A stretch of DNA of 64,000 nt, from positions 11,904,001 to 11,968,000 of the forward strand of contig CM114271.1 of assembly GCA_050084515.1 (NCBI GenBank), written 5' to 3'. A program made the position numbers and the translations under genes. The notes beneath the pieces are model-generated. The model worked only from the letters and a program-made list of their open reading frames with translations, made no database searches and had not been told where the DNA came from. The stretch is from Blasia pusilla (taxonomy: Eukaryota). Each line of letters opens with the position of its first letter. Position 1 is the first letter of the stretch. This document shows positions 19,101-64,000 of this stretch, one piece after another.

Positions 19101-20141
19101 TGTCTTCGAATTGCATCGGTCATAGGATGAGTGTGGGAGCCAACATGAACTGCCAGCCTTGTATACTCTGACGTGGAGCCCAAGTCGTGGACAATGAAAA
19201 ATATGTATGCAGGACACGCTCCAACGCACAAGGGCAATGCTTGACAATGAGGACATCGATGGCCTCCCGGCGGTATGGTGGCACCGACCTCGTATGGAGT
19301 TTCTGCATTCTTGGGAGGGAATTGCGACGTATTGACTCGCCCGTTGCGCTCTAGATACCGGCATGCTGGACTTCTACACTCCAAGGCTCCCACGCATTGG
19401 CGGCGGGAGACAATCCACGGACCATCTGGAATGGAAGCACTGGTCCGTTGAAGCCTGCACCAACGATGACAATCGGACTTTTGTCCATATCCTTCAGCGT
19501 CCTCCATCCTTCTTTTGAGCGGGAGCGGCAAGTGGAGGCAACTCAAAAATGCAATTACCATCAAATGCGTGGGCGGCGACTTGTCGACAAGAATGTGCTT
19601 GAACATTTTCAAGCCGAGACGAAAGCAAACTAATGCCGATACTCGCAAGAGAACAGTAGGCGGACGAGAGGTCCCGATTGGTGTCCGCCAGATCCACGAG
19701 GTTGATAACATCCGAAATCTCTTGGGAAGAACAACATTATTCTGGCGCGTGGAAGTTGGAGTCGGCCGGATCTCGCAGAGCTTGGAGTTGCAAACGTAGA
19801 GCTCGGAGCACTAGGAAATTCTAGACCGTCTACTTGGGAAACAGACGATTTAAGTCGAGGGGCGGGCCGTAAACTCTATATTGACCATTTGCTAGAGGTA
19901 GGAGATTCCATACTTTACGGTCTAAGGTCCTTTGGCTGGACCGTCTCACCTATTATGTCTTCCGTGCCGTCCACCCTAACATCTTTGGATACAAAGATGG
20001 TTCCAATTGGAGAAGAAATCGAAGCATGAGAAAATTTTCATCCTTTGCTATGAAAGACTCACGAGCTTGGGGTCGAATGATTTCCGATTGAGGAAGGGCC
20101 GCCAGATGACTGCCACAAGTGAGCTTAACATAATTATCCAT
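16193..20141 (-). pseudogene. Transposase: GCM-like zinc/WRKY-fold N-terminus, MULE-type DDE core, C-terminal SWIM finger; one intron (17693-18130)
   Basis: C-VGALE-C-x4-C...C-x2-C...C...HVGSHTHP. WVSFD, FMAD and DAFHWQQ, then after splicing (CAG|GTGAGT...TTTCAG|GGA) PNTSGAESVH. SWIM CSCDDF...PCKH. Contains premature stops and a frameshift. Confidence 0.8.
17750..18020. repeat. Palindrome cluster in the transposase intron
   Basis: About 6 copies, e.g. perfect 13-bp arms TGCAACCCGTCGG-AAC-CCGACGGGTTGCA at 17850-17878. Confidence 0.85.
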
Positions 20142-20192
20142 TCCAAGAGGATTCCAACGGGAGGAGACTGAGAATGAGAATGAGAAATTTTA

Positions 20193-21035: not shown

Positions 21036-22529
21036 GGGCAGAAATCGCTCATTTCCGGTTTCTCATTTTGCGATCTTCATTCCTCACTCTCCCGCTTTGG
21101 TGAGCCGATCGATCTGAAGGCGTTTCACACGGCGACACATCGCGAGTCGATAGGAGGAATGAGAGCGAGGCAGTTCGATCGAGCAATGAGACAGTTTGGT
21201 GAACGATCGCGGGACGATTCGAGCTACCCATCAAGGCGATTCAAGCTCCCCATCTCGACATCAGTAAGGCGACTGATCAAGGGATTCGTCGTGGACATAG
21301 ATGGAGGCATTTCCGAAAAAAATGACGAGGAAAAAATCACAAGCCAACAAGTCTGGGAGCTTCACTCCGAAGTCCATTAGGACTCCTGCGTCAGCATCTT
21401 TTGGGCCTCGTTCGGCGAATGAAATTAGGCAGTAGGAAATCAAGGAGGGGGAAAGGGAAGCGGAGATGCACAACCAAGTGCTTCTTGCGAGACGTGTTCA
21501 AGAGGCGCTAGATAAACAGAACGCAGAGGCTGAGACGTCGCGTCGCAGGCCTTGAAGAAAAGGATCGCCGACGAAAAGAGAGAAAAGAAGCGTCTGGACG
21601 CGTCGGTGAGGAGGGCAGAATTGGCTAAAGCGAGGAGGGAAAAAGAAATAGCCATTGACGATAGCCTTGCCCGTCCAACCGCAAGTGTTGAGATGCGGGA
21701 AATGTCCCCCATGAAGGCCGGGGACACAATCAACATAGTGGAAACGCGAGAAGTTGAAATCGATGACGACGAGGTCATGAGGACCGCCAGCGTGGAGATG
21801 GTGGACATGGCCGAAGAAACCGGAGAGCGGTCATTCTCGACTCCAAGCCCGGCGGAGGACATCGACCTCTATCGGATCGACGAGTTCCCAGTCGATTTGC
21901 CAACTTCTATCTCAGACAAGTTAGCTGGTCAAGAAACCGACCCCATTTTCGAGCGGGTAAGAGAGGATCTGGGTTTTCTCAATTATGTGAATTGCAATTC
22001 ATTGGGAATTGATGTAGCTTATTCATCTTGTCCCGGTTCGACGGGTGGTAAAGCGGATGGCACTCATGGAGGGCCTGGCGCGCCGAGGATTCCACTCTAC
22101 CGATTGTGGACAATGGAATGCGTCCGTGAAATTCAGATCCGCGAGGACATCGAAAGCTTAAACAATCGGCGGCAACAAAGACATCCACGTCGATGCTTTC
22201 CTCCCTTCTATGTTCAGCCTTACGACGAGCATGGAACCCAAGCTCTGGTTACGGAGGAGGACTTGGAAAAGCTCGACACATTCTGGAGGATGCGAGACCA
22301 GGATTTCAGAAGGCAAGTTAAGGGCACGGAATTCAGTGGATGAGGAATCGCATTTCTTCATCTGGGATGGAAATCAGGAGTTCATGGCGTGGACCAAGTT
22401 TTGGAGGAGCGGCCCAACTCATTGGAGGCACATTTTGCGTGAAGGAGTGGTCCTTCACCCATTCCCTCATCACATGGCGGCGGTGGAGATGGCAATGCAT
22501 GCCATGAACACGTGAGTATCTTTAACACT

Positions 22530-23250
22530 TACGCAACTCGTCGGGGCGGTTGTTGGGATGCTTTAACACTTACGCCTTTCGTCGGACTCCGGCGAGTTGC
22601 TCGATTGATGAATGGGTTAGGTTTGTTTTGCGAAAGCAACTCGTCGGACTCGGCGGGTTGCTTGACTCCATGCTTTTTTGGATGTTTTTTTAAGAATGCA
22701 ACTCGTCGGACTCCAACGAGTTGTTCGATTGACCACAGATTTAATTAGTTTTTGGCCCAAAGCAAACCGTCAAAGTCCGACGGGTTGCTCGACTCGCCGC
22801 CTTGTCAGGATGTTTTTTGAAGAATGCAACTCGTCGGACTCGACGAGTTGTTCGAAATAACTCGAGTTTAGAAGGTTTTTCCCCAAAGCAACCCGTCGAG
22901 TCCGACGGGTTGCTTGCCTCGAAACTATTTTTGGCCGAAATCAACCCGTCAGAGTCCGACGGGTTGCATTCGGAAGTTGGTTCCCCAAATTTTGCGTCAA
23001 ATTGCAAGTTTACATTCAATTGCGCAACCTGTCGGATTCCGACGGGTTGCTATGTTCACGTTAGTATGTTCAGTTGCACAACCCGTCGGAGTCCAACGGG
23101 TTGAAACCAGGCATTAGCAAATCTGAATGCAATCCGTCGGACTCTGACGGGTTGCATCATTTAGCTCGTTGCTAGAATCCGACCTTGAGCTGTGACGACC
23201 CGTCGGAGTCCGACGGGTTGCAGGAACCCATGTAATTTCCTGACGGGTTG
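22530..23250. repeat. Palindrome array in cargo-gene intron 1 (62-64 bp period in part)
   Basis: Units start at 22637, 22699, 22763, 22827 and 22889, with further copies to ~23250. Confidence 0.85.
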
Positions 23251-25394
23251 AGTTTGGATGTGCAGGATTGTATCGGAGGGGAATGTCACCCACCACTGGA
23301 TCTAGGACTGCGATCGGGTGAGGCCCACAATTTCAAGGATACTGGTAATTTTCCCCACGTACCTGCATTCTTACACTGGACGAGGTACCTGAAGACCATC
23401 TGTTGGGCAGCTTTTAGTCGAACGGAATCGGCCGTCTGCTCCTGTAGATCTCGCTTCTTCTTCGCTTGATCCCATTTGTTCCCCTCTACTTCTTCGTCAA
23501 GCTCTGCCTGAGGGAGGACGCAAACCTTGAACATGGTCTTGAATCCTGGGTTTTTGGTTGGCTTGTCCCGGATGTCGTTGAGCCAAACCTCGAAATCTCC
23601 AGAACTTTCAAGGTTTGCTTCATCCGGGATGGGCTCTAATCTTCTGAGCTCCACTTGCAGACCGTCCAACACGGACTTCCTGATAACCCGCAACCCGTCC
23701 CAGAACGACCATTCGCGTAGCCAGTGGGAGATCAATGGATCAGACACACCCGGAGGATGGTGTGTCGCCCTCTTCTGGGCCTCTGAGCCCTCAAGACTGA
23801 TTTTCATCAATCGGATCCTCCTAAACTCGCTTATGCCGGACAACGCAAACCGATGCACGCGATCCAAGGACACTTTCTCCCCAATCCGACCATGCGGATC
23901 TTCATCCCTTTTCCGCTGGCGCTTGATAATCGCCTTCAGCTCCTTGTAGAACTCCGGACCAAGTTCGGGGTTGAGAATGCTGATGTATCGCTGCATCTTG
24001 CTCGCCGTGTATTTTGTTGCTGCAGCTTGGATGAATTTGGCGCGCTCAGACGCAGATACCCTCTCCCTCCGCTCCAGCTCCAGTGCAGCGCTTTTCTTCG
24101 CGGCCTGTATCTTCGACCAACAAAGGATGGTTACGGGTGCATCTTGGGAAATAAACTTATTTGCCCAAGTTTTCTTTTTAATCTGAGCACCCTTTGCAAG
24201 CATCTGATTGACAAGGGCATCGCCCAAGAACCCCCTGTACTCTCCCGGGTGCGTCGTAAGCACCTTCGCCGCCGGATGCAGAGACATTCTCCATGTACGA
24301 TATGGAGATGGGGCAGCACATGTTTGATTGGGAGGTGGAGAATTGCCCCATTTGGCTCGACTTCAACGACCCTGAAGACATCACCAATAAGGATTTACGA
24401 GTGCTTCATGATGCAGTGGCCTCAGGACAAGACGACATCCCCAATTTCGTCCAGCCTGAAGACTTCTTTGGAGGAGATGCAGAGGAGCAGGCCCACAAGA
24501 CAGCTGAGTTGGCTTCCAAGGTCCGCACAGCCAAAGACAAATCCACAGCGGGTCTCAAAGGCAAGGCGAGGGGAGGGAAAAATTCAGAGGCCGAGTCTTC
24601 CCAAAGAGAGGCTGAAGATTCAAGGCCAGAGGCGGAATCGTCGAGCGGCGGGAGAGAGGGTCGGACCAAGTCTCGGCAAAAAAAAAAACCCCACCGAGTG
24701 TGAGGTCATAGAGACCCCGACAAGCCGTCCGCAGACTCGGGAGAAGCGGAAGCGAGAGGTGCCAGGGTTGTCCCAAGGAGAATACAGTCCATCATCCTTG
24801 GGAAGACACATAAAAACAACGACCCAGACAAGCGTCCTCCTTTAGTTCACTCCTTTACTGGATGAGCTGAAGAGCTTCAGTTCTCAAGCGTCGACTCCAG
24901 CCATCGATAAATTGACAACGTTGGGACGGAAGCTCCAACGAAATGGGCACGCTGCCTGGACGGTGAATGGAGTGGTCGAAGAGGTTGCGGTGGATCTCTT
25001 GATCGCTGATCTGCCCTCGGGGTTGCGACTTTGGGGCAAGAATCCGTCGGACGAGGTACTTGAGTGGAATGTGCCACTCTCTTATGACCAGATTGCGCTA
25101 TTGTTCTCCTTTGCAGACGCCAATCTAAGTGACAGGGGCTGCTTCTTGGTGTTGACTGGAGGGAGCGAGGATGAGCTCTTCAACCTCCAGTGCGTCAAGA
25201 GGTCGCTAAAGTGGAGGACGGCGCAATCATGGATCATAAAAAATGAGTACCCACTCCGATCCGCAACGAGTCAGATTCGGATAAGGCTCAATTCCTGTAC
25301 TATAATTTCAATTATATTTTAATGATGTGTATAATGAGTGTTCATCTCCGTCGAGTGATTATAATGAGTGTCAATCTCCATTTTTTTTGTCCGT

Positions 25395-25760
25395 GAGCAA
25401 TCCGTCGGAAGGCGGGGTTCTTGGCTTAGAGCAGCCCATGCTCGGTGAGCAACCGTCGATTTCCGGACGGGTTGCATCTTTCCACATACAGGGAAAACCG
25501 CGGTGTACTTGCAACTGTGGGAACCCGGCGGGTTGCGCTTGCTTTTGGTTTTTCCTGTGTTTCGAAAAAGCCGCAACCCGTCGATAGCGGCGGGTTGCTC
25601 GGCGAGCATGGGCTGCTCTAGGCAAGCAACCCGTCGCCTTCCGACGGGTTGCTCACGGACAAAAACAACGGAGCCCGACGGGTTGTTTTAGTCACGACCA
25701 ACCCGCCGGAAGGCGACGGGTTGGTCGGGACAAAACAACCCGCCGGACTCCGGCTGAGTT
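25395..25760. repeat. Palindrome array in cargo-gene intron 2
   Basis: About 8 copies, e.g. GCAACCCGTCGCCTTCCGACGGGTTGC near 25626. Confidence 0.8.
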
Positions 25761-28130
25761 GATCCAAAGTCGTAATGGTGAAAATGTTCTCAAGCCGACT
25801 TCTTTAGTTCTTGACATTGTTTCCAACGTGTTGATTTCTGAGATGGACACTCCTACGTCTTTCGCCCGTTCGCCCGAGCACAATTTCGGTGTTCAAGATC
25901 CAGGATCTGTGGATCCATGCTCGATGGGTACACTTAGATAGTTTGTACAATTCCCGGAATTTACATGCAAGACAAGATACCCTTACTTCTGGGAGGAAGG
26001 GAAAAGTTTCAGCCCGATGCAACGCTCATCGAGCTCTGCTCAAGGCCGGGTGACTTGGTGTTCGACTTAGTGGGACTTTCGAGGGCAAGTATCAAAGGCG
26101 CTGGCAGAGTGGCAGAACATTCTGCCTCGAGGAAGGCAGAAACTGTTTGACCTTTGCAAGGAGGCAAAGGCATAATACGAAAGGCTCGTTGGGGCGTACA
26201 ACTCTCCACCGAAGCTGAGAGCTCCGGTTCCAGACCCACCCTTGGTAGTGACTCCATCGTCACTTCCAACGATTCCAAAAATCGGGAGGGCAAGGCCGAA
26301 AGTAATTTTGCAAGAGCTCTCGGACGATGACGAGTGAGTTCAAAGAACTCAAGGACCCAACTTGACTGCAGCGTTTGGAGTAGGAAGCTATTTGATGATG
26401 AGGCAAAAGATTTCATAGAATAGATCAAATGTACAGTTCCGAGCTTTTTTCGGATGATATAAAGGAGATGATTTTTTCGAACGATGGTGGTGCTTGTAAA
26501 AATTTGCTTAACAATTTTTTTCTTTTCGAATGCGATCGTCTATGAACTCCGCGGACTTCTATTTTGCAAACCGTCGGATTTCTCCTGCTTGCAAGTTTTC
26601 ACTTTTTGACGACAGCACCTTTTTACCACTTCCAGGCAACCTGTCGGATTCCGACAAGTTGCCTGATCGGACTCTTTCCCTGTTGGTCCAACTTAAGAGG
26701 TAGTCTGGCAGGCTTCTTCCCTTGGCACCTTCCCCTCAACTCGTAAAGGCAGGCGTAGGCTTCTTTTCTTCTCTCAGACGTGTTGGATTCCTACTACCTG
26801 TGCGATTGCCATAATGGTATTACCGGGGACAGAGCACATATTGATACTGGATGGGTGTCACATTGCAGAGCGTACAAGGTATACTGCCGAGGAAGGCGGT
26901 GGGACTCGAATCAGGTAACATGGGACCGTTATGGTGTACCTAGGGGGGGGCCAAGGCTCTCGAATTCGCCAACATTTTCGATCCCCGTCTATAATCAGCC
27001 AAAGGAGCCACTTGTATCCCAGGACATTCCTTTGGTATTGTCACCAAGGATAGTTAGGAGTAAATTTGTAGATGACGAGGCTGAAGAAATCATAGACTAG
27101 GTCAAATGTACATTTCCAAAGTTCCTTCAGAGGTAATAAAGGACGAGTTTTTTCAACCCATAATGGTGTTTGTAAAAGTTTGCTCGAATATTTTTTTGGA
27201 CTTGTGGATTGTGTTCTTTTAGCTACTCAGAATTACAATTCTGCAACCCGTATGATTTCGACGGGTTGCAACTTTTTGCTTTTTGCCCACTGTAACTTTT
27301 TTTTTTACCATTTCGGGCAAGTCGCCGATTCCGATAGGTTGACTGCTTGAGTGATCGGACTCTATCCCGGTGAGACCAACTTCTGACGCATTGTGCGGCC
27401 CTCTTAACTTTTGGCTCGTTCCCCTATATTCGCCAAACCAGTTGTAGGCTTCTTTTCTTGTCTAAGATGTGCATGATTCCTTCTACCTGTCGGATTGCCA
27501 TTCCGGATTCCCAACCTGTTAGATCGTCGTGGGTGCAGGGTGGAAGAAAATCACTTCTAAAAATCTTTCCTTTCTTATGGTGAGCTTTCTTACGGGTTGG
27601 GAGGGGTGCAGCTTCTCGGTTTCTCAGCCTTAGGATCTGATGTGTTCACATTTCACAAAGTTGGTCTTGAGCAGACACCATTCATAACCAAGTTATGAAT
27701 AGATATGGGGCAATTACGGGGCAATTTAGGGGAGGCCATGATGCAAGCAACAATCCCTGCAAAAAGAAAGGTTGGCATCCGGGTGGTCCTCCAACAAAAA
27801 TACCAAGGGCACTGCTTTTTCTTGACCGAGACAGGGAATGTTAAGAAACTTAGGCTCACATGGAGAGTGATGGAAAAATGTTTGTAGTGGTCTTATGATG
27901 TCTCCTTTTTTCTCACCCCCATGAAAGAGAAGGTTTTTTTAGGGCCAAATGTGGACCACTAAATACTCTCTTTTAAAGATTTCATGAATTTGAAAGCAAA
28001 CAAAAATTTCAAATATGTCAAAAATTTTGAAGAGAGGAGGCGGATTTGGCCCTTTTTTTTTAAGAGAGACTCTCCTCTCTTCCTCTCTTCCTCTCCTCTC
28101 TTACTCTCTCCTGCCAGAATACCAGCCCCC

Positions 28131-43206: not shown

Positions 43207-44560
43207 ATATGTAATGCCATTGCCTCTTGACCATAATGGTCATCCACAATTGTGAAAAACTACCTGAATAGATGGGTTGGTAATATCCTTCCCATCCACC
43301 ATTCCCTATAGGGAGGTCTTGTCAAGGAGGTTTGTCACCTCCAAGGCTTGGTTTTGAGTTGTAGAATTGCTAATTCCCTGGTTGGAATCCAAGTTTTTGC
43401 TCATTGCTCATTGCTCCAAGGTTTTGCTCTTGTTTGTAGTATTGGTGGTGCATTGTTGTGTCTTCTAGGTACTGATGTCGTGGCCTTTCCTTCCCTGAGT
43501 TCATTCCAAAGACCATTGTTGCAGGCAGCCAGAACCTTCTCTCTTTCAATGGGGATTGTTGCTCTTTGCTTGGTGGTCAAATTTGGGAAGATACGGATAG
43601 TGGATCCTTTCAGGACTGCTTTATTGCGGAGGATGGCCAACCTCGTTTCCATCGCTGGTCCCCGTTATGAGGGATCAAATTGTACCAATATTGGTGTTGG
43701 TTGGTCCCCTGTTCCTTTCCCAAGTCTGATCCTTATGAAGGTGACTGTTGGTGTGAGCCCTAGAGTTGTGAAGATCTTCTCTTGCAAAACTGAATTACAA
43801 TCTTCTTCTTTGGTAAAGTGCAGCCCTATGATAACTAAATTGAGTTCCCTGGTTTTCCTTTCCTGGATTTCTAGGACCCTATCTGCTTGCTCTTTTGCTA
43901 CCTCTTTGGCTACATGTGTTGCAACCTCATTGATTTATGTTGTGGCCCTGTGCTTTCCCACTACTTCTGTCCAGGTTCTCATAGGATTTGCAAAGTTATT
44001 CCTAGTTAAACGCAACTCTTGCATTATCTTCCCAAGCTGAGTGTTATCCTCTTTGAAGCAGGCAGCTAAGTCCTTCTTCAATTGCAAGTTCTCAGCCCTC
44101 AAAGTGACTAGCTCTAATTCCAGAGTTGTCTTCTAAGCCGTCCATCCGAGAAGGTTCGATTCCTTGCTGGACATCCATCTCCCCTGCTCTTCTTTTGCTT
44201 CCTGCATCATTGTATTCCATGCCAACATCTGGTTGGCCTAAAAGCTTTCCCATTTTCCCTCTAATTCAGAGAATTGATCGATAATGGATGCCACTTCCAT
44301 ATATGGTATAACCTTTGTTGAATGTGTGACAAGTGCGTGTAGTCGTTCCTTGTCACATTGCCTCATTTTTTTCTTCACATAGTGGCAAGAATTTGGTGCA
44401 ATCAATCTGCGTGAACCATTTGATCTCACTGATCATCCACTATCCCTGCTCTTCGTCTGCTTGAGGGAAAGATCCTTGACACTGGTCGTGTCTTGGACCT
44501 TCTCTGGCGAGGTTTCTAATGCTGGTTGTTTTGTAGTAGTCACGAGTGCAGTGTTCACTT
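43207..44560 (-). pseudogene. Degenerate LINE ORF1-like sequence (coiled coil plus RRM-like part), cut by the element C LTR
   Basis: RELNLVIIGL and RLAILRNKAVLKGSTIRIFPNLT resemble L1-type ORF1 motifs, with coiled-coil-like sequence upstream. Confidence 0.5.
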
Positions 44561-51372: not shown

Positions 51373-53012
51373 CAAGTAGACAAACTCCAAAAATTTGCAA
51401 CCAGATGGATTTTGAGGGTTTACAACCTGTTGGACTCCGACGGGTTACAACTTGGCGGATTCAGAAAATTTGCAAGTAGACGGATTCCGAGGGTTTGCAA
51501 TCTGTCAAACTCGGAAGAGCTGCAACTTTTCGGAGTATGAAAATTTGCAACCATAAGGATTCCAAAAATTTTGCAACCTGTCAGACTCTGACGGGTTGCA
51601 AGTAGTCGGAATCTGACGGGTTGAACTAACCCCATGAATGGCCAAATTGAGGCAATCGGGATAGTCAAAAAAATTCAATGTGTTCAATCCCAAGGGTAAT
51701 TTATTTGTAATGCACTTTCCTTGGTCCACACAACGACAGAAAATCTCACCTATCAACCAACAGCTTGTCAGACGATTTATGTTAGAAGTTTAACGATCAC
51801 TATTCTCTATAAATTAAACATTCTCATTCTTATTCTTATTCTCCTCCCAGTGGAATCATCGGTGTTGACATCTTCAAATGGATAATTATGTGAAACTCAT
51901 ATGTGGCAATCATCTAGCGGCCCTTCCTCAATAAAAAAATAATTCGACTGCAAGCTCGTGATTCTTATGTACAAGTGGATGAAAATTTCCCCTCACTCCA
52001 ATTTCTTCTCCAAATTGGAACAATTTTCATTTCCAAGGATGAACGTCATAGGTGAGATAGTCCAAACAGGGATTGGAGACTCCAAAGTATGGAATCTACT
52101 ACCTTACAGAAATGAACAATGTAGAGTGTATGGCTTGCCTCTAAAGCCTTTTGTTTCTCAAGTCAACGGTCTACAATTTCCTAGTGCACCGAGCTCCACG
52201 TTTGCCACTCCTACCTTTGGAGATCTAGCATCGACTCCAACATCACACTTTAGTAACAATGATGTACTTCCTGAAGAGATTCCGGATGTTCAACCTCACA
52301 GGATCTGTTGGACACCAACCGGACCCTGCCTTTGCCTACTCATTCTTGTTGCAAGTTTTGGACAATAGTTTGTTGTCCTCTCTGCCCTTGAAAATGTTCA
52401 AGCACATTCTTTTCGACGAGTTTCCGCCCACATATGATGGAAATTGCATTTTTGAGTTTCCTCCACTTGCTGGTCCTGCTCGGAAGAAAGATGGATGCTT
52501 GAAGGGTATGGACATAAAGTTTGACTGTCATCAATGGTGCAGGCTACAACAAACTAGTGCTTCAATTCCATGTGGTCCTTCGATTGTTTCTCGCGGCTAA
52601 TGCGTTGGAGCCCTTGAGTGTAGAAGTCTTGGCTGCCCGTTTCTAGAGCACAATGGGCGAGTCAGTACCACGCAATTCCCCCCCAAAGAATGCAAAAACT
52701 CCATATGAGGTTGGTGTTGCCATACCGCCATGAGGCCATCAATTTCCTCATTGTCATGCCTCCCCTTTCTACGTTTGAGCGTGTCGAACATACATTTTTT
52801 CTATTGTGCATGACTATAGTTCTACGTCTGAGTACACCAAGTTGGCACTTCATGTTGGGTCCCACACTCATCCTCTTGTCAGTGCAATTCAGAGACACAT
52901 CAAGGAGGATGTGGCAAAGAAAGAGGCTGAGGTATATAGAAATTCTCCAGGATCAAAGCGCGGAGTGATCAAATTGACAACATCACAAATTTGTGAACGA
53001 CTTCTTGGAATC
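51373..53012 (+). mobile_element. Mutator-like element copy 3 (fragment: palindromes, promoter and 5' transposase 51878-53012), bounded by the CACTA end on the left and copy 2 on the right
   Basis: ATGGATAATTATGTG at 51878; homologous to 61792-62950 (GCM-like cysteines, HVGSHTHP). Breaks at CTTGGAATC|GGGGGCTGG. Confidence 0.85.
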
Positions 53013-55951
53013 GGGGGCTGGTATTCTGGCAGGAGAAAGGAAGAGAGGAGAGTCTCTCTTAAAAAAAAAGGGCCAAATCCGCCTCCTCTCTTCAAAACTT
53101 TTTGACATATTTGAATTTTTTGTTTGCTTTCAAATTCATGAAATCTTTAGAAGATAGTAGGTAGTGGTCCACATTCGGGCCTAAAGAAACCTCCTTTTTC
53201 CAAGGGGCGAAAAAAAAATAGACATCATAAGACCACTACAAACATTTTTCCATCACTCTCCATGTGAGCCTAAGTTTCTTAACATTGCCTGTCTCGGTCT
53301 ACAATAAGCAGTGCCCATGGGTATTTTTGTTGGAGGACCACCCGAATGCGCATCGGTACGATGCCAACCTCTCTTTTTGCAGGGATTGTTGCCTGCATCA
53401 TGGCCTCCCCTGAATTGCCTCATAACCAACTTTCTGTTGGTTATGAATGGTGTCTGCTCAAGACCAACTTTGTGAAATGTGAACACATGAGACGATAATT
53501 GAACCAAAAGATTGTTAGCTTTCTGGAGTAAAGAGGAACTGATGTCCCTTCATTTAGATCCTAAATCTGAGAAACTGAGAAGCTGCACCCCTCCCAACCC
53601 GTCAAAATTTTACAGGTTGCAACTCTTGCAACCCGTCGGAATGAGATGGCTTGCACACCTTGCAAGAAATCTCACCATAAGAAAGGAAAGATTTTGAGAA
53701 GTGATTCCATTCCACCCTACACCCACGAAAATTCAACAGGTTGGGAATCCAAAATGGCAATCCGACAGGTAGTAGGAATCCTGCACGTCTTAGACAAGAA
53801 AAGAAGCCTACAATTGATTTGACGAATCTAGGGGAACGTGCCAAAAGTGAAGAAGCCGGCCACAATGCCTCAGAAGTTGGTCTCATAGGAAAAGAGTCTG
53901 ATCAAACAAACAGCCAACCTGTCGGAATCGGACAGTTTGCCTGGAAATGGTTAAAAAGTTGTAGTGGTCAAAATTTGCAAAGTTGCAACCCGTCGGAATC
54001 AGACGGGTTGCAAAATAAACATTGTGACTAGCTAGACGAACACCATGGAAAAGTCCAAAAAAATTATTCAACAGACTTTTACAAACACCATTATCGTTTG
54101 AAAAAATCTTGTCCTTTATTACATCCGAAGGAAGCTTGGAAATGTACATTTGATCTAGTCTATGATTTCTTGAGCCTCGTCATCCACAAATCTACTCCTA
54201 ACTCTCCTAGGTTCCTGTACAAAAGGAAAGTCCTGGGATACAAGTGGCTCCTCTAGCCGATTGTAGACGGGGATCAAAAATGTTGGCGAATTCGAGAGCC
54301 TTGGCCCCCCTCTAGGTACACCATAATGGTCCCATGTAACCTGATTTGAGTCCCACCGCCTTCCTCGGCACTATATCTTGTAAGCTCTGCAAGATATACA
54401 AGATGACACCCATCCAGTATCAATATGTGCTCAGTCTTTGGAAACACCATCATGGCAATCCGACAGGTAGTTGGAATCCAACACGTCTTAGAGAAGAGAA
54501 GAAGCCTACGACTTGTTTGACGATACTAGGGGAAGGAGCCAAAGTGAGGAAGCCCACCAGAATGCCTCTAAAGTTGGACTAATAGGGAAAGAGTCTGATC
54601 ACTCACGCAACCAACCTGTCGGAATCCGACAAGTTGCTTGGAATTGGTTAAAAAAGTGTAGTGGTCAAAAAGTGAAAAGTTGCAACCCATGGGAATCCGA
54701 CGGGTTGCATAATAAATTGTCGGAGTACATAGACGATCACAATTGATGAGACCAAAAAAGATATTCATCACTGTTCGAAAAAATCTTGTGCTTTATTACA
54801 TCCAAAGGGAGCTCGGAACTGTACATTTGAGATATTCTATGAATTCTTCTGCCTCGTCATCAAATAAATCCCCACTCCAAAATACTGAAGTCAAGTTGGG
54901 TCCTTGAGTTTTTTGAACTCACTCGTCATCGTCCGAGAGCTCTTCGAGAATTACTGTGGGTCTTGCCCTCCCGATTTTTGGAATTGTGGGAAGTGACGAT
55001 GATGTCACTACCAATGGTGGGTCTGGAACCGGAGCTCTCGACTTCGGAGGAGAGTTGTATGCCCCAACTAGCCTGCCGTAATCTGCCTTTGCCTCTTTGC
55101 AAAGGTCAAACATTTCCTGCCTTCCCTCAAGGCAGAGAATGTTCCTGCCACTCTGCCAGGCGCCTCTCATACTCGCCCCTGAAAGGCCCACTAAGTCGAA
55201 CACCAAGTTACCCGGCCTTGAGCAGAACTCGATGAGCGTTTGCATCAGGGCTGGCGACTTTTCCCTTCCTCCAAGTAAGGGGGTACCGTCTCGCATGTAA
55301 ATTCCCGGGGAGGGGAGGGGGGGAGGAATTGTATAAACTATCTAAGCTGTACCCATCGGAGCATGGATCCACTGGATCGAGGATCTGAAACACTTGGAAG
55401 TTGTGCTCGGGCCTTACAAAATAGTAGACAAAGGAGTGGTCCATGTGTAAAGAAGCAGGTTGGAAAAAATATCAGCACAAGAAAGAGCTAATTTCAGTCT
55501 GCAACAAGAAAGGCATACTATCAGAATGCTGACAACGTGCAACTCGTTCCCAAAGAACTTCGCTTAACCCGAGAGAACTTAGTTATAATCCTAACATTGG
55601 AGCAACCTGTCGGAGTCCGACGGGTTGTTTTATAAGTGTTAGTGAAATTTTTTGCCATGAGCAACCCGTCGGAAGGCTACAGGTTGTTGGATTAGAGCAA
55701 CCCGTCGCTTTCAGACGGGTTGCATCATTCCAGAAACACAAGGAAAAAGCATAATCATTTGCAACCCGTCGGGTTCCGACGGGTTGCATTCACCCAATGG
55801 AGACTTGCGGTAAATTTGCAACCCGTCGCTTTCAGACGGATTGCACCATCAAAGTCTCTAGCTCAAAAAATCCAACGGGTTGCATGCAGAGATGCAACCC
55901 GTCGGAGAAAGAAAATTTGGATATGGATTTAGAGCCCTTACCCAGATTTGA

Positions 55952-56346
55952 TGTGAGAAAAGTAGAAAGTGACTAATCACTGAAATCTTTACAAAACTTA
56001 GAGATACAAAGTGGCCTAGTCCGTCCGTGCGCTCACAGAAGAGCTTCGATGGAACCTAAACTGGGAGATTACTCGACATACGAGAATGCGCTACCGCTGC
56101 GGCTCCCAACTATTTGACTACTCGGAAAAACTAGGGTTTTACCTATTTTTCTTTGTTTCTATTAATAGAAAATTTTTGCCTAACAGGTTTATTTAAACCT
56201 AGTAACGCTACTCTGTAAACCACCTACGTCATATTACTATGACTCCTTCGACGTCTAAGTTGGAACCATCGATCTAGGCTTCTCCTCATACAAGGGGGCC
56301 GATCAAATCAATGGTGCTCAGAGGAGTGGATGTTGAGAATCCAATA
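55952..56346. mobile_element. Probable solo LTR (395 bp) inserted in cargo gene copy 2
   Basis: Absent from copy 1. Flanked by 5-bp TTTGA repeats (55947-55951, 56347-56351); TG...TA ends (probably mutated TG...CA). Confidence 0.65.
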
Positions 56347-58429
56347 TTTGACTCGTCGCGGATCAGAGTGGGTACTCGTTCTTGATGACCCACGATTACG
56401 CCGTCCTCCACTTCAACGACCTCTTGACGCACTGCAGATTGAAGAGCTCATCCTCGCTCCCTCCAATAAAAACTAAGAAACAACCCCTATCACTAAGATA
56501 AGCATTTGCAAAGGAAAACAGGAGCGCGATTTGGTCATAAGAAAGAGGGACATTCCAGTCTGGGACCCCGTCGGACGGATTCTCGTCCCACAAGCGCAAC
56601 CCCAAGGGAAAATCAGCGTTAAGGAGATCCACCGCCACCTCTTCGACCTCCCCATAGACCGTCCAGGGAGCGTGCCCGTTTTGTTGAAGCTTCCATCCCA
56701 GCGTTGTCAATTTCTTGATGGCGGGTGTTGACGCTTGGGAATTGAAACTTTTCAGCTCATCCAGAAGATTCGTGGAGTGAATGATGACGCTTGTCCGGGT
56801 CGTTGTTTCTCTATGTCTTCCCAAGGATGATGGAGTGTATTCCACATCTTGGTCTGCTCCCTAGGACAACCCTGGCGCCTCTCGCTTCCGCTTCTCTCGA
56901 GTCTGCGGTCGGCTTGTTGGGGTCTCTATTACCTCAGACTCTGGTGGAGTTTTTTTTGCGGAGGACCTGGTTTGACCCTCTCTCCCCGCTCGCCCGGACG
57001 ATTCCGGCTCTCGCCTTGAATTTTTAGCCTCTCTTTGGTAAGACTCGGCCTCGGAATTCTTCGATCCCCTCGCCTTGGCTTTGAGACCCGTTGTAGATTT
57101 GTCCTTGGCGATGACAACTTTGGACACCAACTCCGCTGTCTCGAGGGCTTGCTCCTCCGCATCTCCTTCAAAAAAGTCTTCAGGCTGCATGAAATTGGGG
57201 ATGTCATCCCTACCTGCGGCCTCTGCATCATAGAGCAGGCGTAGATCTTTCTCGGTTATGTCCTCAAGGTCGTTGAAGTCCAGCCAGATCGGAAATTCTC
57301 CACCTCCCAATCGGACATGCTTTGAGCCATCTCCATGTCGTACATGGAAAATGTCTCTCCATCAGGCGAAGAAGCCCACAATTTGCAGGCTGCAGGTATT
57401 TTTCGCCATGTACCTACATTCTTACAATGGACAAGGTACCTGAACACCATGTGTTGGGCAGCTCTTAGTCGAGATGCATCGGCCGCCTGCTCCTGAAGAT
57501 CTCGCTTCTTCTTTGCGAAATCCCTTTTCTTCGCCTCTATTTCTTCATCAAGGTCTGCCTGAGGGAGGATGCGATCCTTGAACATCGTCCTGAAACTTGG
57601 GTTTTTTATGGGCTTGTCCCACATGTCATCCAGCCAAAGTTCAAAATCTTCAGCACTCTCCAGGTTTGCTTCCTTCGGAATTGGCTTTATTCTTTTCAGT
57701 TCCGCTTGGAGATCCACGAGCATGGACTTCCGAGAAGCCGCAACGCATCCCAAAATGACCATTCTCGGAGCCAGTGGGAGATCACTGGATCAGAGACACC
57801 TGAAGGATGGTGTGCCGCCCTCTTTTGGGCCTCTCTGCCCTCGAGACTCATTTTCATCAGTCGGATTCTCCAAAATTCCAAAATTCCAAAATTCCAGACA
57901 AGGCAAATCAATGCACGTAATCAAGAGACACTTTCTCCCCAATCCGACCCTCCGGATCTTCATCCCTCTTCCTTTGGCGCTTGATCATCGCCTTCAGCTC
58001 CTTGTAGAAATTGGGGCCAAGTTCAGGGTTGAGAATGGCGATGTAGCGCTGCATCCTGCTTGCCGTGTACTTCATAGTTGTAGATACTGCAGCTTGGATG
58101 AACTTAGCACGCTCAGACACAGACACTTTCTCCCTCCGCTCCAACTCCAATGCAGCGCTCTTCTTGGCGGCTTGTATCTTCGACCAGCAAAGGATTGTCA
58201 CGGCTGCATCTTGGGAAATAAATGTATTTGCCCAAGTCTTTTTTCTTATTTGAGCACCCTTTGCCAGCATCTCATTTACAAGGGCGTCGCCCAAGAACCC
58301 CTTGTACTCTGCCAGGTGCGTCATTAGCACTTTCTTCACCCGATCGTAATCCTGGATCTAGTGATGGGTGATATTCCCCTCCGATACAATCTTGCACATC
58401 CAAACTCAATATAAGAAATTTTGCAAGCT

Positions 58430-59070
58430 ACATGGGTTCTTGCAACCCGTCAGACTCCGACAGGTCGTCACAGCTCATGGTTGGAATGGTAGCTACGAGC
58501 TAAATTTTGCAACCCATTGGAGTCCGATGTGTGATTGCCTGGTTTCAACTCGTCAGACTCCGACGGGTTGTCAGATAATTTGTATTTAGAGAGTGGTCTC
58601 CGCGAGAAAAGTGAACATATCAACCCGTCTGAGTCCGACATGTTGCACAATTTCAATTAAAGCTGCAATTTGACGCCAAAAATCAAGCTCCCATACTCTC
58701 ATCACCTTCATGTGTCGGCGAATGCAACCTGTCCGACTCCGACGAGTTGCTTTGGGCCAAAAACATCCTAAACCAGTGGTCAGTCAAGCAACTCGTCGGA
58801 TTCCGACAAGTTGCTTTCTTCCAAAAATATCCAAAAATAGCGGCCAATCGAGCAACTCGTTGGACTCCGATGAGTTGCTTTTGGCCAAAAACATCCTAAA
58901 CGAGTGGTCAGTCAAACAACTCGTGGGACTCCGACGAGTTTCTTTCGGCCAAAAACATCCTAAACCATTGGTCAGTCGAACAACTCGTCGGACTCCAACG
59001 AGTTGCTTTTGGCCAAAAACATCCCAAAAATAGTGGCGAGTCAAACAACTTGTCGGAGTCCGACGGTTTG
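58430..59070. repeat. Palindrome array with 64-bp period in intron 1 of copy 2
   Basis: Units start at 58725, 58789, 58853, 58917, 58981 and ~59046. Confidence 0.88.
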
Positions 59071-60669
59071 CAGCAAGAGGAAACTTATGTGTTCATGGCA
59101 TGCATGGCCATCTTCACCATCGCCATGTGATGAGGGTATGGATGTAGCACGATTGCCTTCACGCAAAAATGCGCCTCCAATGAGTTTGGGTGCTTCTCTG
59201 CAAACTGGGTCCATGCCATGAACCTGTGGTTTCCATCATAGATGAAGAAATACACGTTCTGCATCCAGCTGAATTCTGTCCCCTCAATCGCCCTTCTGAA
59301 TTCCTGATCTCTCATCCTCCAGAATATGTCGAGCGCTTCCAAGTCCTCCTCTGTAACCAGCGCTTGGGTTCCATGTTCATCGTAAGGCTGAACATAGAAC
59401 GGAGGGAAGCTGTTGACGTAGGATGTTGTCGCTGCCGATTGTTTTAGCTTCGTAATATCCTTGTCATACTGAATTTTGCGGACGTACTCCATTTTTCGCA
59501 ATCGGAAAAGTGGAATTTTTGGGGCGTTCTGGCCCTCCATCAGTGCCATCTGCTTTACCACCTGTCACAACGGGGACAAGGTCAATAAGTTACACTGAAT
59601 TGCCAATGAATTGCAACATGGGCTTTCACATAACTCACAGAACAAAGATCGTATCTTACCCGCTCGAAGATTGGGTCGGTGTCTTGGCCAGCCAACTGCT
59701 CTGGGACAGTAGCTAGCAAGTCCACTCGAAACTCGTCGATCCGATAGAGGTCGATTTCTTCCGCCGGGCTTAAAGACAAGGAAGACCGCTCTCCTGCTTC
59801 TTCAGCGATGTCCACCATCTCCACGCTCGCGGTCCTCATGACCTCATCATCCGTCACTTGAACTTCGGCCGTTTCCGCAATATTGATTTTGTCCCCAGAC
59901 TTCATCGGGGACATTTCCTGCATCTCAATACTTTCGGTTGGACGGGTCGGGCTTTCTTCAATGGCAATCGCTTTTTCCCTCCGAGCTTTGCCAATTCTGC
60001 TCTTCTCATCGACCCATCCAGACGCTTCTTTTCACGCTTTTCGTCGGCGATCCTTTTCTTCAAGGCGTGCGATGCCTCAGCCTCTGCGTCCTAGTTTTCG
60101 AGCACCTCCTTTACACGTTTTGCAAAAAGCTCTTGCTTGTGCATCTTCGCTTCCCTTTCCTGCTCCTCAATTTCTTGCTGCCTTTTCTCATTGGCCGAAC
60201 AAGGCCCTGGAGATGGTGACACAGGAGTCCTTATGGACTTGGGAGTGAAGTTCCCAGCCTTGTTTGCTTGATATTTTTTCCAAGTCATTGTTCCCGAAAA
60301 TGCCTCCTATGGTCAAGGAAATTGCTCTATGTGCATGATGAGTTGCCTCAAGGAGTCGCCTTGATGAGTCGCCTTGATGATGTCGCAATGAGTTACCTTG
60401 ATGAGTAGCTCAAATCGTCTCGCGATCGTTTCTCTCGAATCGTCTCGCGATCGTTCGCTCGAATCGTCTCGCAATGAGTCACTGTGTAAAGCGCCCCTTG
60501 GTATCTGGTCAGCTGCTGTGGGCGGAAGAGCAATTGAGATCGCGAAACAAAAAACCAAAACTGAGCAAACCCTCGTCTATTTCTACTTTTCGAGCTGTTG
60601 GGCTAACCGTTGGGTCGCATCGTCGTTCCGACAACGACGTGTTGGCCGTTATGGAAGTCTGGACGTGAA

Positions 60670-61610
60670 AAACACCAACCCAACGGCTCCGACAGGTTGC
60701 ACGCTTCCCGTGGGTTCCAAGCATCTGTCCTCCTAGGCAACCCGTCGGAGACCAACAGGTTGCATGCCTCCGCCGTCTTTGGACAAGAACGCGAGGTACC
60801 CACGCAACCTGTCGGAGACCGGTGGGTTGCACGCTTCCCTCGTCTTGGGATAACAAGGCGGGCTACCCGCGCAACTCGTCGGAGGCCAACAGGTTGCACG
60901 CTTCCTTCATGTAAGCAGTACAAGGCGAGGCATTTGCGCAACCCGTCTGAGGTCGACGGGTTGTGCGCCTTCGCCATCTTCGGGCAAGAAGGCGCGGCAC
61001 CCGTACAACTCGTCGAAGACGGACGGGTTGCACGCTTCCTTCATGTAAGCGTTACAAGGTGAGGCACTTGCGCAACCCGTCTGAGGCCGACGGGTTGCCC
61101 GCCTCCGCCGTCTTTGGGCAAGAAGGCGCGGCACCCGCGCAACTCGTCGGAGACCGACGGGTTGCACGCTTCCTTCATGTTAGCATTACAAGGTGAGGCA
61201 CTTGCGCAACCCGTCCAAAGCCGACGGGTTGCACGCTTCGCTTATCTTGGGGTAATAGGTGAGGTACAAGGGCAACCCATCGGTTAGCGACAGGTTGCAC
61301 GCTTTTCTATCCCTCGGGTAACAATTTGACAACGTATAGTTCGGAGGCAACCCATTGCAATCTGACGGGTCACATGATCTACCCTGAGTTGGACAATCCC
61401 GCAAAAGTCCCCAACGATTGGTTTCCTCACCATATGCAAGCGATATCTCGTGTTTAATGCTAGCAAAATCGACTCAAAAGACCATTGGTCGGCTAGAAGG
61501 GGGTACCAACCCAACGGACTCCGACGGGTTCCATCAAATAGAAGTGGGTGCTTCGCAACCAACGTCTCTGATTCTCAAATTCTGCAACCCACCTGACTCT
61601 GACAGGTTGC
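60670..61610. repeat. Palindrome array in the divergent intergenic region of copy 2 (includes ~134-bp two-palindrome tandem units)
   Basis: CAACCCGTC...GACGGGTTG units repeating at ~60939, 61073 and 61207. Confidence 0.85.
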
Positions 61611-61791
61611 AACAGAATTGAATCCATTGTGTCAAACATTCTCACCTACCAAACTTCATCTTGTCAGTCAAATTCTGTCAGGAGAATCTGAGTCCCTATT
61701 CACTATAAATTAAACATTCTCATTCTCATACCCATTCCCATTTTTATCATCATTCTTATTCTCAGTCTCCTCCCGGTGGAATATTTTGGGA

Positions 61792-63813
61792 ATGGATAAT
61801 TATGTGAAGCTCACTTGTGGCAATCATCTAGCGGCCCTTCCTCAATGAGAAATCATTCGACCGCAAGCTCGTGAGTCTTTCATAGCAGAGGATGAAAATT
61901 TTCTCTTAGTTCGATTTCTTCTCCAAATTGGAACCATCTTTGTATCCAAGGATGTTAGGGTGGACGGTACGGAGGACATAATAGGTGAGACAGTCCAACC
62001 AGTGATTGCAGACCGTAAAGTATGGAATCTCCTACCTCTAGCAAATGGTCAATACAGAGTTTACAACTTGTCCCTGAATTCCTCTGTTTCCCAAGTAGAC
62101 GGTCGAGAATTTCCTAGTTCATCGAGCTCTACGTTTGCAACTCCTACCTCAGTAGATCCGACATCGACTCCAACTTCACACACTCGTAACAATGTTGTAC
62201 TTCCTGAAGACATTCCGGATGTCGTCAACCTCAGTGGATCTGTCGGACACCAACCGGGCCCTCTGTCCGCCTACTCATTCCTCTTGCGAGTATCAGGCAA
62301 TAGTTTGCTATCGTCTCTGGTCTTGAAAATGTTCAAGCACATTCTTGTCGACGAGCTGCTGCCCACGTATGATGGTAATTGCATTTTTGAGTTGCCTCCA
62401 CTTGCTGCTCCTGCTCAAAAGAAAGATGGAGAACGCTTGAAGGGTATGGACAGAAAGTCTAATTGTCATCGATGGTGCAGGCTTCAACGAACTAGTGCTT
62501 CAATTCCAGATGGTCCTTGGATTGTCTCCCGCCGCCAATGCGTTGGAGCCTTGGAGTGTAGAAGTACAACATGCCCGTATCTAGAGCGCAACGGGCGGGT
62601 CAATACGTCGCAATTCCCCCCAAGAATGCAGAAACTGCATATGAGGTCAGTGCCACCATACCGTCGAGAGGCCATCAATGTCCTCATTGTCAAGCATCCC
62701 CTTTCTACGTTGGAGCGTGTCCTGCATACATATTTTTCATTGTCCATGACTTGGGCTCCACGTCAGAGTTCACAAGGCTGGAAGTTCATGTTGGCTCCCA
62801 CACTCATCCTGTGACCGATGCAATTTAGAGACACATCAAGGAGGATGTGACGAAGAAAGTGGTCGAGGTCCACAAAGACTCTCCGGGTTCAAAGCCCGGA
62901 GTGATCAAGCTAAAAAAAACATCACAAATTTGTGAAAAATTTGCTTGGAATCCCTGGACAGGGCGAGATCACGGCTGCTGAGGAGAAACAACTATGGGAA
63001 AATCTCGCATTTATCGCTGATCCTAAATGCTTCCGGAATTGGCTGCGTCAAATACGGGTATTGGATGGAAAGACGGCCGAAATGGATGCCATTGCCAGAA
63101 TCAAGGCCAACTCCATATTTCCATTCATTCAGAGATGGCAGTTCATGGGCCAAGGAGGCAAAGGATCCAAGGCCTATGTCTTCAAAATGTCAACCACAGG
63201 TCCGTCGAGTGGCCTCGATCTTATAGATCGAATGAGGGAAGGGGAAGATCTTTACGACAGCTGGGTAAGCTTTGATATTTGCTACAGAGTGTTGAACGGA
63301 TGGTTGACAATGGGTGCTCACATTTATGACCATGTGGAGAAGGGACTCAAAATTATATTTGTCTGTGAAGTAAAAGCAAAAGACGTTGGTAGTTTGAAGA
63401 TGTGTTGGGTACTCTTTTTGGAGGTGGTGAAGGAAAACAAAAGGCCACCTCTGGAAATTTATGGGTTCATGGCGGACAATGCACAACCTGGGTGGATTGC
63501 TATCAGGGAAGTGTTCTGGGGTGGAGAGGTTCAACCCGAGAGGGAAAGTTCAGATGCTTTCCATTGGCAACAGTCTGTGACCCGATACACCAAATCTTGC
63601 ATCAAGGAGAATAAGAGGACAGAGCATGTCACTCTACTCCAACGCTGCAAGGACAGCAAAACCTTGAAACAGGCCATGGAATGCCAAGAAGAACTTCATG
63701 GGTGGTGGAGGAAGCATGCGATTGAGGGGAAGTACAAAGAGTTGTGCTCTTGGATGAGTTGGTGGACTGTACGTATGAGACAATGGGGAAACTTCATGCG
63801 GCAACTGAGTTGA
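61792..63813 (+). pseudogene. Transposase copy 2, exon 1 (GCM-like domain and MULE DDE core); remainder beyond the window
   Basis: MDNYVKL start in frame with ORF 61960-62814. ORF 62932-63813 has WVSFD, FMADNAQ and DAFHWQQ. Confidence 0.82.
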
Positions 63814-64000
63814 CTATTTTGTCTTGTCAAGCTCACGCTGAGAATTTTTTGAAAAGTTCCAGCTCAAGTTGAGAAGTGTGGGCACTATTGGGATTTCAAA
63901 CCGAAGAAACCAAATAACTTGTTGGATGCGACGGGTCGCCCGAGTGTGCAACCCGTCGGAAACAGACGGGTTGCCCGAGTGTGCAATCCCTGGGAAATGG

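Follow-up and report, generated by a model that had tools for sequence, protein, structure and literature searches.

The window analysed here is the whole 64,000-nt stretch of Blasia pusilla DNA (GenBank assembly GCA_050084515.1, contig CM114271.1, positions 11,904,001 to 11,968,000 of the forward strand), and all coordinates count from window position 1. It carries two old, inverted, and degenerate copies of one Mutator-like (MULE) DNA transposon family. Besides its transposase, this family encodes an accessory protein of ~1000–1200 aa in a multi-exon gene. The protein has four parts: a disordered N-terminus, a domain with the ParB/sulfiredoxin (Srx) fold, a middle region of ~600 aa, and a C-terminal domain derived from PF01555. 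Judged by its sequence, the C-terminal domain descends from the beta-class N6/N4 DNA methyltransferases of phages or bacteria. Its S-adenosylmethionine (SAM) loop (D-F-x-G-G-W-G with the following acidic residue) is kept, and a conserved D-[LMFV]-P-[STLF] stands in the place of the catalytic motif DPPY. We assign a probability of roughly 55% to the reading as a whole, namely two old MULE copies with a ParB–methylase-like accessory gene that acts on the element’s own DNA. In the descriptive part of this reading, taken by itself, our confidence is high.

Transposable-element open reading frames (ORFs) fill the window, the G+C content of which is 37–53%. Comparison of the window with itself revealed one element present twice, inverted and diverged, with a DNA identity of 72–89%. 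Copy 1 lies at ~16.0–28.1 kb, with its accessory gene on the plus strand. Copy 2 extends from ~53.0 kb to the window end, with its accessory gene on the minus strand. In both copies, the accessory gene stands head to head with a MULE-like transposase gene, which bears out the proposal of an earlier, sequence-only note on this DNA that the gene is transposon cargo. The transposase gene of copy 1 (16196..19810, minus strand) contains in-frame stops and a palindrome-rich insertion. That of copy 2 (61849..63999, plus strand) is cut by the window end, is interrupted by stops and frameshifts, and shares 89% DNA identity with copy 1. The transposase gene is represented a third time by a fragment of its 5′ part (51824..53012, plus strand; 79% identity to 61750–62952), which adjoins the 3′ end of copy 2. 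The common layout is thus represented in the window by two full copies and one fragment, and dozens of accessory-gene paralogues occur in the liverwort Riccia sorocarpa. The identity between the two copies is uneven along their length. It amounts to 89% on the transposase side (61612–63974 versus 17961–20290) and to 72–82% on the accessory-gene side. Recombination or gene conversion between elements could account for this gap, and so could unequal constraint.

The assignment of the transposase was based on its motifs and on its embedding neighbours. By eye, we recognized a C-x4-C...H-x-H block, a DDE-like core, and a C-terminal CxCx(n)CxH (SWIM-like) block, for which Pfam returned a SWIM match with an E-value of 0.036. 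The ESM Atlas neighbours of the transposase were MULE transposases, 71–99% of them with PF10551, at scores of 0.87–0.95. The lack of definable terminal inverted repeats and target-site duplications would also fit a segmentally duplicated host gene, which would not be transposon cargo at all. We give very little credence to this explanation. The paralogues and fragments of the gene, dozens in number, are scattered over several Riccia chromosomes, and both window copies kept the adjacent transposase. Furthermore, both copies are decayed, and copy 1 appears to split a long terminal repeat (LTR) retrotransposon.

The accessory gene is best followed in copy 2. It runs on the minus strand from an ATG at 60288–60286 to a TGA stop at 54921–54919, so that the range of 54919–60288 assigned to it in the earlier note spans the gene from start to stop. 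The 5′ part (59660..60288) encodes a charged, low-complexity N-terminal region. It contains an in-frame TAG at 60093–60091 and a 1-nt frameshift near 59985; copy 1 is open across the equivalent of this frameshift (ORF 21534–22343; tblastn). Intron 1 (59562..59659) measures 98 nt, begins with GT, ends with AG, and is in phase 0 at either boundary. The exon before it ends in GAG CGG, followed by GTAAGA, and after GACAG the frame is reopened by GTG GTA AAG. The frames on the two sides agree with the ORFs 59582–60031 and 59085–59564. The ParB/Srx-fold exon (59089..59561) carries the motifs IPLFRL, VR, and DGNHR; the ParB-like string IPLFRL...YFFIYDGNHRFMAW was read directly at 59516–59200. Immediately after this exon, copy 2 has the degenerate splice donor ATAAGT (59083..59088), where copy 1 has the consensus donor GTGAGT (22512–22517). 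Therefore, the splice site after the ParB exon has been lost in copy 2. If this intron stays unspliced, an in-frame TAA is met at 59087–59085.

The middle region of copy 2 (56864..58357) is collinear with residues ~333–900 of the Riccia sorocarpa protein P0121. It is broken by stops at 58360–58358 and 57910–57908 and by at least three frame changes across 57.3–58.4 kb. The first of these stops falls on a tryptophan position that is conserved in Riccia, and a further in-frame stop is found at 56863–56861. The N-terminal half of the methylase-like domain (56399..56860) contains VDLLNADFPLG, the equivalent of motif IV, at 56632–56600. It is followed by an intron or insertion (55472..56398), which is unalignable between the copies and contains four copies of a palindrome at 55602–55844. 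The C-terminal half (54919..55471) is collinear with P0121 residues 1106–1176. In this half, an HNF block, EKSPALMQTLIEF...VFDLVGLSGAS...CLEG (motifs X, I, and II), an acidic tail, and the TGA stop follow each other, with at least one frameshift near 55300–55340. The SAM-region string EKSPALMQTL...DLVGLSGASMRG...CLE was read directly at 55263–55126.

The accessory gene of copy 1 (21304..26337, plus strand) is heavily decayed. Stops and frameshifts occur within its ParB, catalytic, and SAM exons, and DGNHR is changed to DGNQE, out of frame. Its motif IV equivalent reads VDLLIADLPSG (24990–25022). In the segment 23320..24267, the middle-region ORF lies on the minus strand, although the gene otherwise runs on the plus strand. 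Copy 1 (23320–24267) thus differs from copy 2 (57371–58334) by a clean internal inversion of ~950 bp, and most of the middle region is kept in copy 1 as a single ORF of 358 aa (23289–24362, minus strand). Because of the in-frame stops, the frameshifts, the lost splice donor of copy 2, and the inverted segment of copy 1, both copies are pseudogenes. Each of the three motif strings cited in the earlier note was found where the note had placed it, and the gene that the note had read at this locus turned out to be a decayed one. Its two introns stood in part: one is the clean GT–AG intron at 59562–59659, and the second follows the ParB exon, with the donor kept in copy 1, although the count of two is incomplete.

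We then considered the protein family beyond the window. The 159-aa ParB exon had 118 relatives at E ≤ 1e-3 and 33 at E ≤ 1e-10 in a HMMER search of 1.84 billion representatives. The best relative showed an E-value of 8.5e-22 at ~33% identity. We looked up 30 of the 118 representatives: 18 were hypothetical proteins of Riccia sorocarpa, one came from the fern Adiantum nelumboides, and 11 were from environmental or raw-read assemblies. In word-based searches with Riccia members, all the matches (13/13 and 26/26) were further Riccia proteins, none of them from Marchantia; therefore, the family is highly multi-copy in the Riccia genome, where paralogues and fragments are spread over several chromosomes. 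A word-based search with the ParB exon for longer proteins found nothing, and two single-protein scans of metagenome contigs for the DNA of the relatives yielded no confirmed locus. The UniRef name “Trimethylguanosine synthase”, attached to some of the Riccia paralogues, was taken as automatic, and no TGS1 profile match was found.

Four blocks, namely ParB, middle region, D-x-P-x, and SAM, follow one another in the 1207-aa Riccia protein P0121 as they do in copy 2. In at least seven Riccia models (P0121, P0127, P0021, P0012, P0039, P0123, and P0007), the same linker joins the ParB block to the middle region. P0121 continues as far as motif I. These Riccia sequences are predicted gene models, and it is on such models, together with the collinearity, that we infer the translation of the ParB and methylase parts as one protein.

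The fusion might also be a gene-prediction artefact, with the ParB-like exon and the methylase-like exons belonging to two separate genes or products. Both copies have an in-frame stop after the ParB exon if the intron is retained. Many database relatives are only 180–250 aa long and end exactly where the ParB domain ends, and the start codon and 5′ exon structure are uncertain. However, such short relatives are what ORF callers would be expected to yield on unspliced DNA. The consensus GTGAGT donor stands right after the ParB exon of copy 1, the Riccia models named above continue through ParB into the middle region (P0121 as far as motif I), and the order and orientation of the parts are alike in both window copies and in Riccia. 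We therefore regard separate genes as distinctly unlikely and treat the accessory gene as a single fused gene.

The ratio of nonsynonymous to synonymous divergence (dN/dS) between copy 1 and copy 2, a calculation suggested in the earlier note, was 0.30 over all alignable codons and 0.14–0.17 in the best-kept exons. For the exon with motif IV, copy 2 compared with copy 1 gave 0.17. The value of 0.30 indicates that the gene was formerly under selection. The bulk of the divergence between the copies accrued under purifying selection, presumably in active parent elements. A chance ORF or an antisense artefact was ruled out by the relatives, by the collinearity, and by this dN/dS value.

The ParB/Srx assignment of the N-terminal domain came from structure prediction. 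An AlphaFold2 (AF2) model of the ParB exon, built from an alignment of 123 sequences, reached a predicted local distance difference test (pLDDT) score of 88.2 and a predicted template modelling (pTM) score of 0.83. The single-sequence model was unusable (pLDDT 36.7). When the alignment-based model was searched against the PDB with Foldseek, ranks 1–10 were all ParB or Noc (E 0.018–0.053, probability 0.90–1.00), followed by KorB, PadC, sulfiredoxin, and SbnI. The top match was 7BNR_B. VIA-align, which is independent of Foldseek, compared the model with 48,161 chains, of which only 15 reached Z ≥ 2. The best of them was PadC (Z 8.0, root mean square deviation 2.9, 96 aligned), followed by KorB (7.5), Arabidopsis Srx (6.7), pNOB8 ParB-N (6.4), SerK (5.9), human Srx (5.8), Atu1540 (5.0), and SbnI (4.8). 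A search of BFVD also placed ParB-like proteins on top, including phage entries named “DNA methylase” and “modification methylase”. Since the Z and E values are modest, the weight of the fold call lies in the exclusivity of these match lists. The model and the three fold searches agree, and they support a predicted ParB/Srx fold, as had been suspected from the sequence motifs.

Across the family, the most conserved blocks of this domain are IPLCR..VR and (W)DGNHR..AW. In the former, R21 is kept in 72 of 87 sequences and R29 in 81 of 94. In DGNHR, the conservation is 104/120 for D, 113/120 for G, 118/120 for N, 115/120 for H, and 103/121 for R. These blocks may be the counterparts of the arginine motifs of ParB (the N-terminal one and the phosphate-binding GxxR of box II) and of the GCHR motif of Srx. 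Pfam scans of 61 members gave weak, isolated matches at the DGxHR block, to DUF1015 in three members (best E 0.0056), DndB in one (0.066), and DUF6551 in one (0.23).

For the C-terminal domain, relatives could be recognized by sequence. The last (SAM) exon of the window matched PF01555 with an E-value of 0.0036 (17.7 bits). Eight of the 11 Riccia relatives scanned did so with E-values from 9.4e-6 to 0.14 (12.5–26.2 bits), and all the Riccia matches fell on the same C-terminal profile positions. The precomputed annotation of the source database lists PF01555 for P0128, P0169, P0171, P0175, and P0185. In the PDB sequence search, the window exon found M.RsrI at E 0.0025. The family profile of the methylase half gave DpnA (0.023) and RsrI (0.69), with no gain over the single sequence; its match to a paramyxovirus F protein (0.022) is clearly due to chance, and so is FancD2 (E 0.023), which Pfam returned when run on all the window exons. 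Of the 30 ESM Atlas neighbours of P0122, every one contains PF01555 (scores 0.94–0.95), and most belong to phage clusters. A tblastn search of phages with P0122 gave three weak matches in the SAM block (E 4e-3), to Lactobacillus phage methylases.

One of these phage proteins, the complete PF01555 methylase of Lrm1 (252 aa), was aligned to the family with hhalign. The probability was 94.8–95.9% and the E-value 5e-8 to 6e-9, over 52 columns with 42% identity. This block spans motifs X, I, and II. At a looser threshold, the alignment extended to 212 columns with low per-column confidence, and it placed D-L-P-T opposite the phage D-I-P-Y and VPTWN opposite NPTWY. Motif IV stands upstream of motif I: in P0121 and P0122, D-x-P-x precedes the SAM loop by ~150 residues, and the order is the same in the two window copies. 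On sequence grounds, then, the C-terminal domain is a full-length relative of the PF01555 enzymes in beta-class order, and the methylase-like domain first suggested from its motifs in the window is borne out by the profile, PDB, hhalign, and ESM Atlas results alike.

The non-canonical catalytic motif already noticed in the window proved to be real and conserved through the family. In the 27 database members, motif IV reads DLPS (11), DMPT (7), DLPT (6), DMPS (2), or DVPF (1); in the window, it reads DFPL in copy 2 and DLPS in copy 1. The canonical (D/N/S)-P-P-(Y/F/W) was found in 0 of the 27 members and in neither window copy. Motif I is D-[FLY]-x-G-G-W-G or near it in all 24 members compared, with D-L-V-G-L-S-G in the window, and the acidic residue after the SAM loop is conserved. 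The Lrm1 phage enzyme itself has D-I-P-Y, and therefore the first proline is dispensable in natural relatives. The real departure from the canonical motif is the missing aromatic residue.

These motif states bear on a possible catalytic activity of the accessory protein as a DNA N6-adenine or N4-cytosine methyltransferase, by which it would mark the element or the genome as the phage fusions do. The conserved SAM loop and acidic residue would fit such an enzyme, and so would the collinearity of the domain, in length and order, with the complete phage methylase. The first proline is missing from the phage relative too, the fern member has an aromatic residue (D-V-P-F), and the catalytic exon is strongly constrained, as its dN/dS shows. 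However, the base-stacking aromatic position is occupied by S, T, or L in 26 of the 27 members and in both window copies, and in METTL14-type proteins the loss of this aromatic residue accompanies inactivity. We consider an active methyltransferase of this kind unlikely.

Both element copies are rich in a 27-nt palindrome, GCAACCCGTCGG-N3-CCGACGGGTTGC (12-3-12). With up to 3 mismatches allowed, we found 39 matches in the window, where 0 were expected. Of these, 38 lie inside the two element copies and one at 51573, and no palindrome was found in the first 16 kb of the window or in the 24 kb between the copies. In copy 2, an array between the divergent genes (60737..61304) consists of 8.5 copies of a 67-bp unit with a palindrome in each. 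A second array, in the intron after the ParB exon (about 58724..59065), has 5.2 copies of a 64-bp palindrome-bearing unit. Copy 1 has arrays matching both of them, the intergenic one at 20410–20938. Further palindromes are found in or beyond the transposase gene (15987, 17750–17987, and 63948) and downstream of the accessory gene (26636, 27243, 53985, and 54682). The densest arrays are those in the accessory-gene introns and at the flank of the accessory-gene 5′ end.

On this basis, we propose that the accessory protein may have acted on the element’s own DNA. The 27-nt palindromes in the introns and in the promoter region that the two genes share would be its loading sites, like parS for ParB. 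The SAM-binding domain would modify DNA or chromatin, or it would block modification. As an outcome, the element would escape host silencing or transpose more readily. The binding of the palindromes, any enzymatic activity, and an anti-silencing role are thus the putative functions of the accessory protein, and the self-targeting mechanism, taken alone, is a tentative proposal. Since the palindrome arrays are a candidate cis-site, the idea is directly testable.

The same palindromes may have a different explanation. Subterminal or internal repeats serve as transposase binding sites in many DNA transposons. The palindromes could thus be the sites of the transposase itself, or else an unrelated hairpin minisatellite, and the accessory protein would act elsewhere, for example as a chromatin factor or a nuclease, or together with the transposase as its NTP-dependent partner. 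The palindromes in and beyond the transposase gene and those downstream of the accessory gene favor this possibility. The C-x4-C...H-x-H block of the transposase, a motif read by eye, is of the DNA-binding MULE type, and our searches detected no such module in the accessory protein, nor one of any other DNA-binding kind. On the other hand, the arrays are densest at the 5′ flank of the accessory gene and in its introns, and published descriptions of red-algal elements of another transposase superfamily also place inverted-repeat arrays beside ParB-type accessory genes. We rate this alternative as rather improbable, somewhat less so than an active methyltransferase, and retain the palindromes as candidate loading sites of the accessory protein.

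A bolder version of the self-targeting proposal can also be formulated. A land-plant MULE family would run a eukaryotic ParB/parS system on itself: an NTP-binding ParB fold would sit on the palindrome arrays, and a re-tooled methylase domain with D-x-P-S/T would write an unusual mark or block silencing marks. This system would have originated from a phage ParB–methylase and would have been selected in bryophytes and ferns. We regard this version as a long shot.

Several observations weigh against the overall reading of the window as two MULE copies with a self-targeting ParB–methylase-like gene. For the ParB fold, neither Foldseek against the PDB nor the BFVD search returned a match at E ≤ 0.001, and the top VIA-align Z of 8.0 is “middling” by the tool’s own scale. 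The Pfam ParBc profile (PF02195), the search of which the earlier note had proposed as a check, matched neither the window exon nor any of 20 relatives and 61 members. Searches of PDB sequences with the ParB exon or with the family profile found nothing relevant; matches to a SET protein and to PBP4 were judged to be chance. Copy 2 deviates at three strongly conserved positions of the ParB domain (F for C20, A for F44, and L for W78), which is consistent with decay. No helix-turn-helix (HTH) or other DNA-binding module was identified in the accessory protein, and Pfam scans of the relatives gave no HTH profile match.

For the methylase-like domain, all the PF01555 scores computed here remain below the Pfam gathering score of 26.7 bits, and the confident alignment with the Lrm1 methylase is confined to the last ~52 columns. 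The missing aromatic residue of motif IV argues against ordinary amino-methyltransferase chemistry. On the side of the element, Pfam MULE (PF10551) found no match in the transposase. No clear terminal inverted repeat or target-site duplication was found, and copy 2 extends past the window at its far end. There is no intact copy in the window, and the association of the accessory gene with the transposase and the palindromes is known from this window alone. Finally, the palindromes could equally be transposase sites or a minisatellite, as described above.

The presumed ends of copy 1 and the neighboring elements provided further observations. A perfect 30-nt inverted pair (15786–15815 and 28070–28099), in GA/CT-rich low-complexity DNA, lies at the presumed ends of copy 1, with no shared 9–11-mer flanking it. 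The pair may be part of terminal inverted repeats, or it may be coincidental low complexity. ORFs similar to gag and to an aspartic protease (DSG motif; 27962–29914, minus strand) stop at ~28.13 kb, where the homology between the copies ends. To the left of ~15.8 kb (11094–15800, minus strand), that strand continues with ORFs for reverse transcriptase (RT), RNase H, and integrase. Copy 1 thus seems to be inserted within an LTR retrotransposon, and no target-site duplication was found at its ends there.

An LTR-retrotransposon polyprotein (11094–15872, minus strand) includes RT, RNase H, and an integrase with a C-terminal PHD finger; a second copy is located at 6877–9710 on the plus strand. Just upstream of the RT, the ORF 14793–15872 matches the C-5 cytosine DNA methylase family PF00145 (E 3.1e-10) and may belong to the retroelement. 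Retrotransposons carrying cytosine methyltransferases are reported in the literature, for example in a preprint. Between the two MULE copies, three direct repeats of ~1 kb (31950–32951, 37117–38276, and 41985–43207; one pair 96.7% identical) flank gag, RT, and integrase ORFs at 33.3–41.5 kb. They are probably the LTRs of one or two nested Ty3/Gypsy-type elements. The ORF 4834–5376 (minus strand) has a weak match to DUF4216 (E 6e-4), which occurs in plant transposase-associated proteins of the CACTA/En-Spm type.

How mobile DNA counters silencing by its host can be seen in transposons that bring along genes for modifying chromatin or DNA. The known cases include VANDAL elements with VANC, retrotransposons with DNMT or Dam genes, and the accessory cassette of the red-algal Plavaka elements. 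VANC is an anti-silencing protein that brings about hypomethylation through sequence-specific binding; to our knowledge, it has neither a ParB nor a methyltransferase domain. The present family, with named relatives in a liverwort and a fern, would add a fused protein with a predicted ParB fold and a PF01555-like domain on MULE-type elements, together with a conserved non-canonical catalytic motif. A phage-style domain pair thus survives, with introns, in a eukaryotic genome. As the window copies are dead, it is the family rather than the locus that makes the finding valuable. If the ParB/parS-like reading is true, the accessory gene would be a self-targeting epigenetic toolkit of a transposon. 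Our literature search found no description of this accessory-gene family; the supplements of the red-algal preprint cited below may bear on this point.

The domain pair has its counterpart in phages, in which ParB–N6_N4 methylase fusions are, according to the available text, enriched or common (PMC12704722). As in these fusions, the ParB/Srx fold is N-terminal and the beta-class PF01555-type methylase is C-terminal. The likeness extends to the individual parts: the ParB model matches phage methylase proteins in BFVD, and the methylase half aligns with a phage PF01555 enzyme. In contrast to the phage fusions, the gene described here is eukaryotic, contains introns, and is transposon-borne. Its two domains are separated by ~600 aa, its motif IV lacks the second proline partner and the aromatic residue, and its ParB part is unrecognised by any sequence profile. 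Iyer et al. (PMC4738411) derived eukaryotic methylases from phage ParB–terminase loci. They reported a ParB–HTH fusion in chlorophytes and chytrids, and the present architecture is not described in the accessible part of their paper.

Horizontally acquired methyltransferases of bacterial type are also established elsewhere in eukaryotes. Marchantia DN4MT1 and the N4CMT of bdelloid rotifers are described as active N4-cytosine methyltransferases that deposit N4-methylcytosine. Like the present family, they are eukaryotic proteins with beta-class amino-methyltransferase domains of bacterial type, and one of the two lineages is a liverwort. Compared by description, the family studied here differs from them in its degenerate motif IV and in being transposon-borne.

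Among plant transposons, the VANDAL elements of Arabidopsis, which are MULEs, offer a parallel in layout. Their accessory protein VANC targets short motifs repeated in the element’s own non-coding DNA, as summarized in the accessible text of the red-algal preprint (10.1101/2025.02.11.637652). In both cases, an element of the Mutator superfamily has an accessory gene and repeated motifs in its own non-coding DNA, and this likeness does not imply homology.

The closest published precedent, as far as the accessible text of the same preprint goes, is found in the giant Plavaka and Mutator transposons of red algae (10.1101/2025.02.11.637652). These elements carry PAG2, which combines PF01555 with SET, and PAG3, which combines a ParB-like domain with a 2-oxoglutarate (2OG) oxygenase. 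Tandem inverted-repeat arrays adjoin PAG3, and self-binding and self-modification of the element were put forward by the authors. In red algae as in the present family, ParB-type and PF01555-type domains are thus found in accessory genes of DNA transposons, and most copies are degenerate in both. Inverted-repeat arrays lie beside the ParB-type gene in both, and the best HHpred match of PAG3 is 7BNR_B, which was also the top structural match of our ParB model. The two systems, compared by description only, differ in several respects. Both domains belong to one gene here and to two genes there. No SET or 2OG-oxygenase domain was detected in Pfam scans of the window exons and of the relatives. 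The named relatives of the present family are a liverwort and a fern, and its motif IV is non-canonical.

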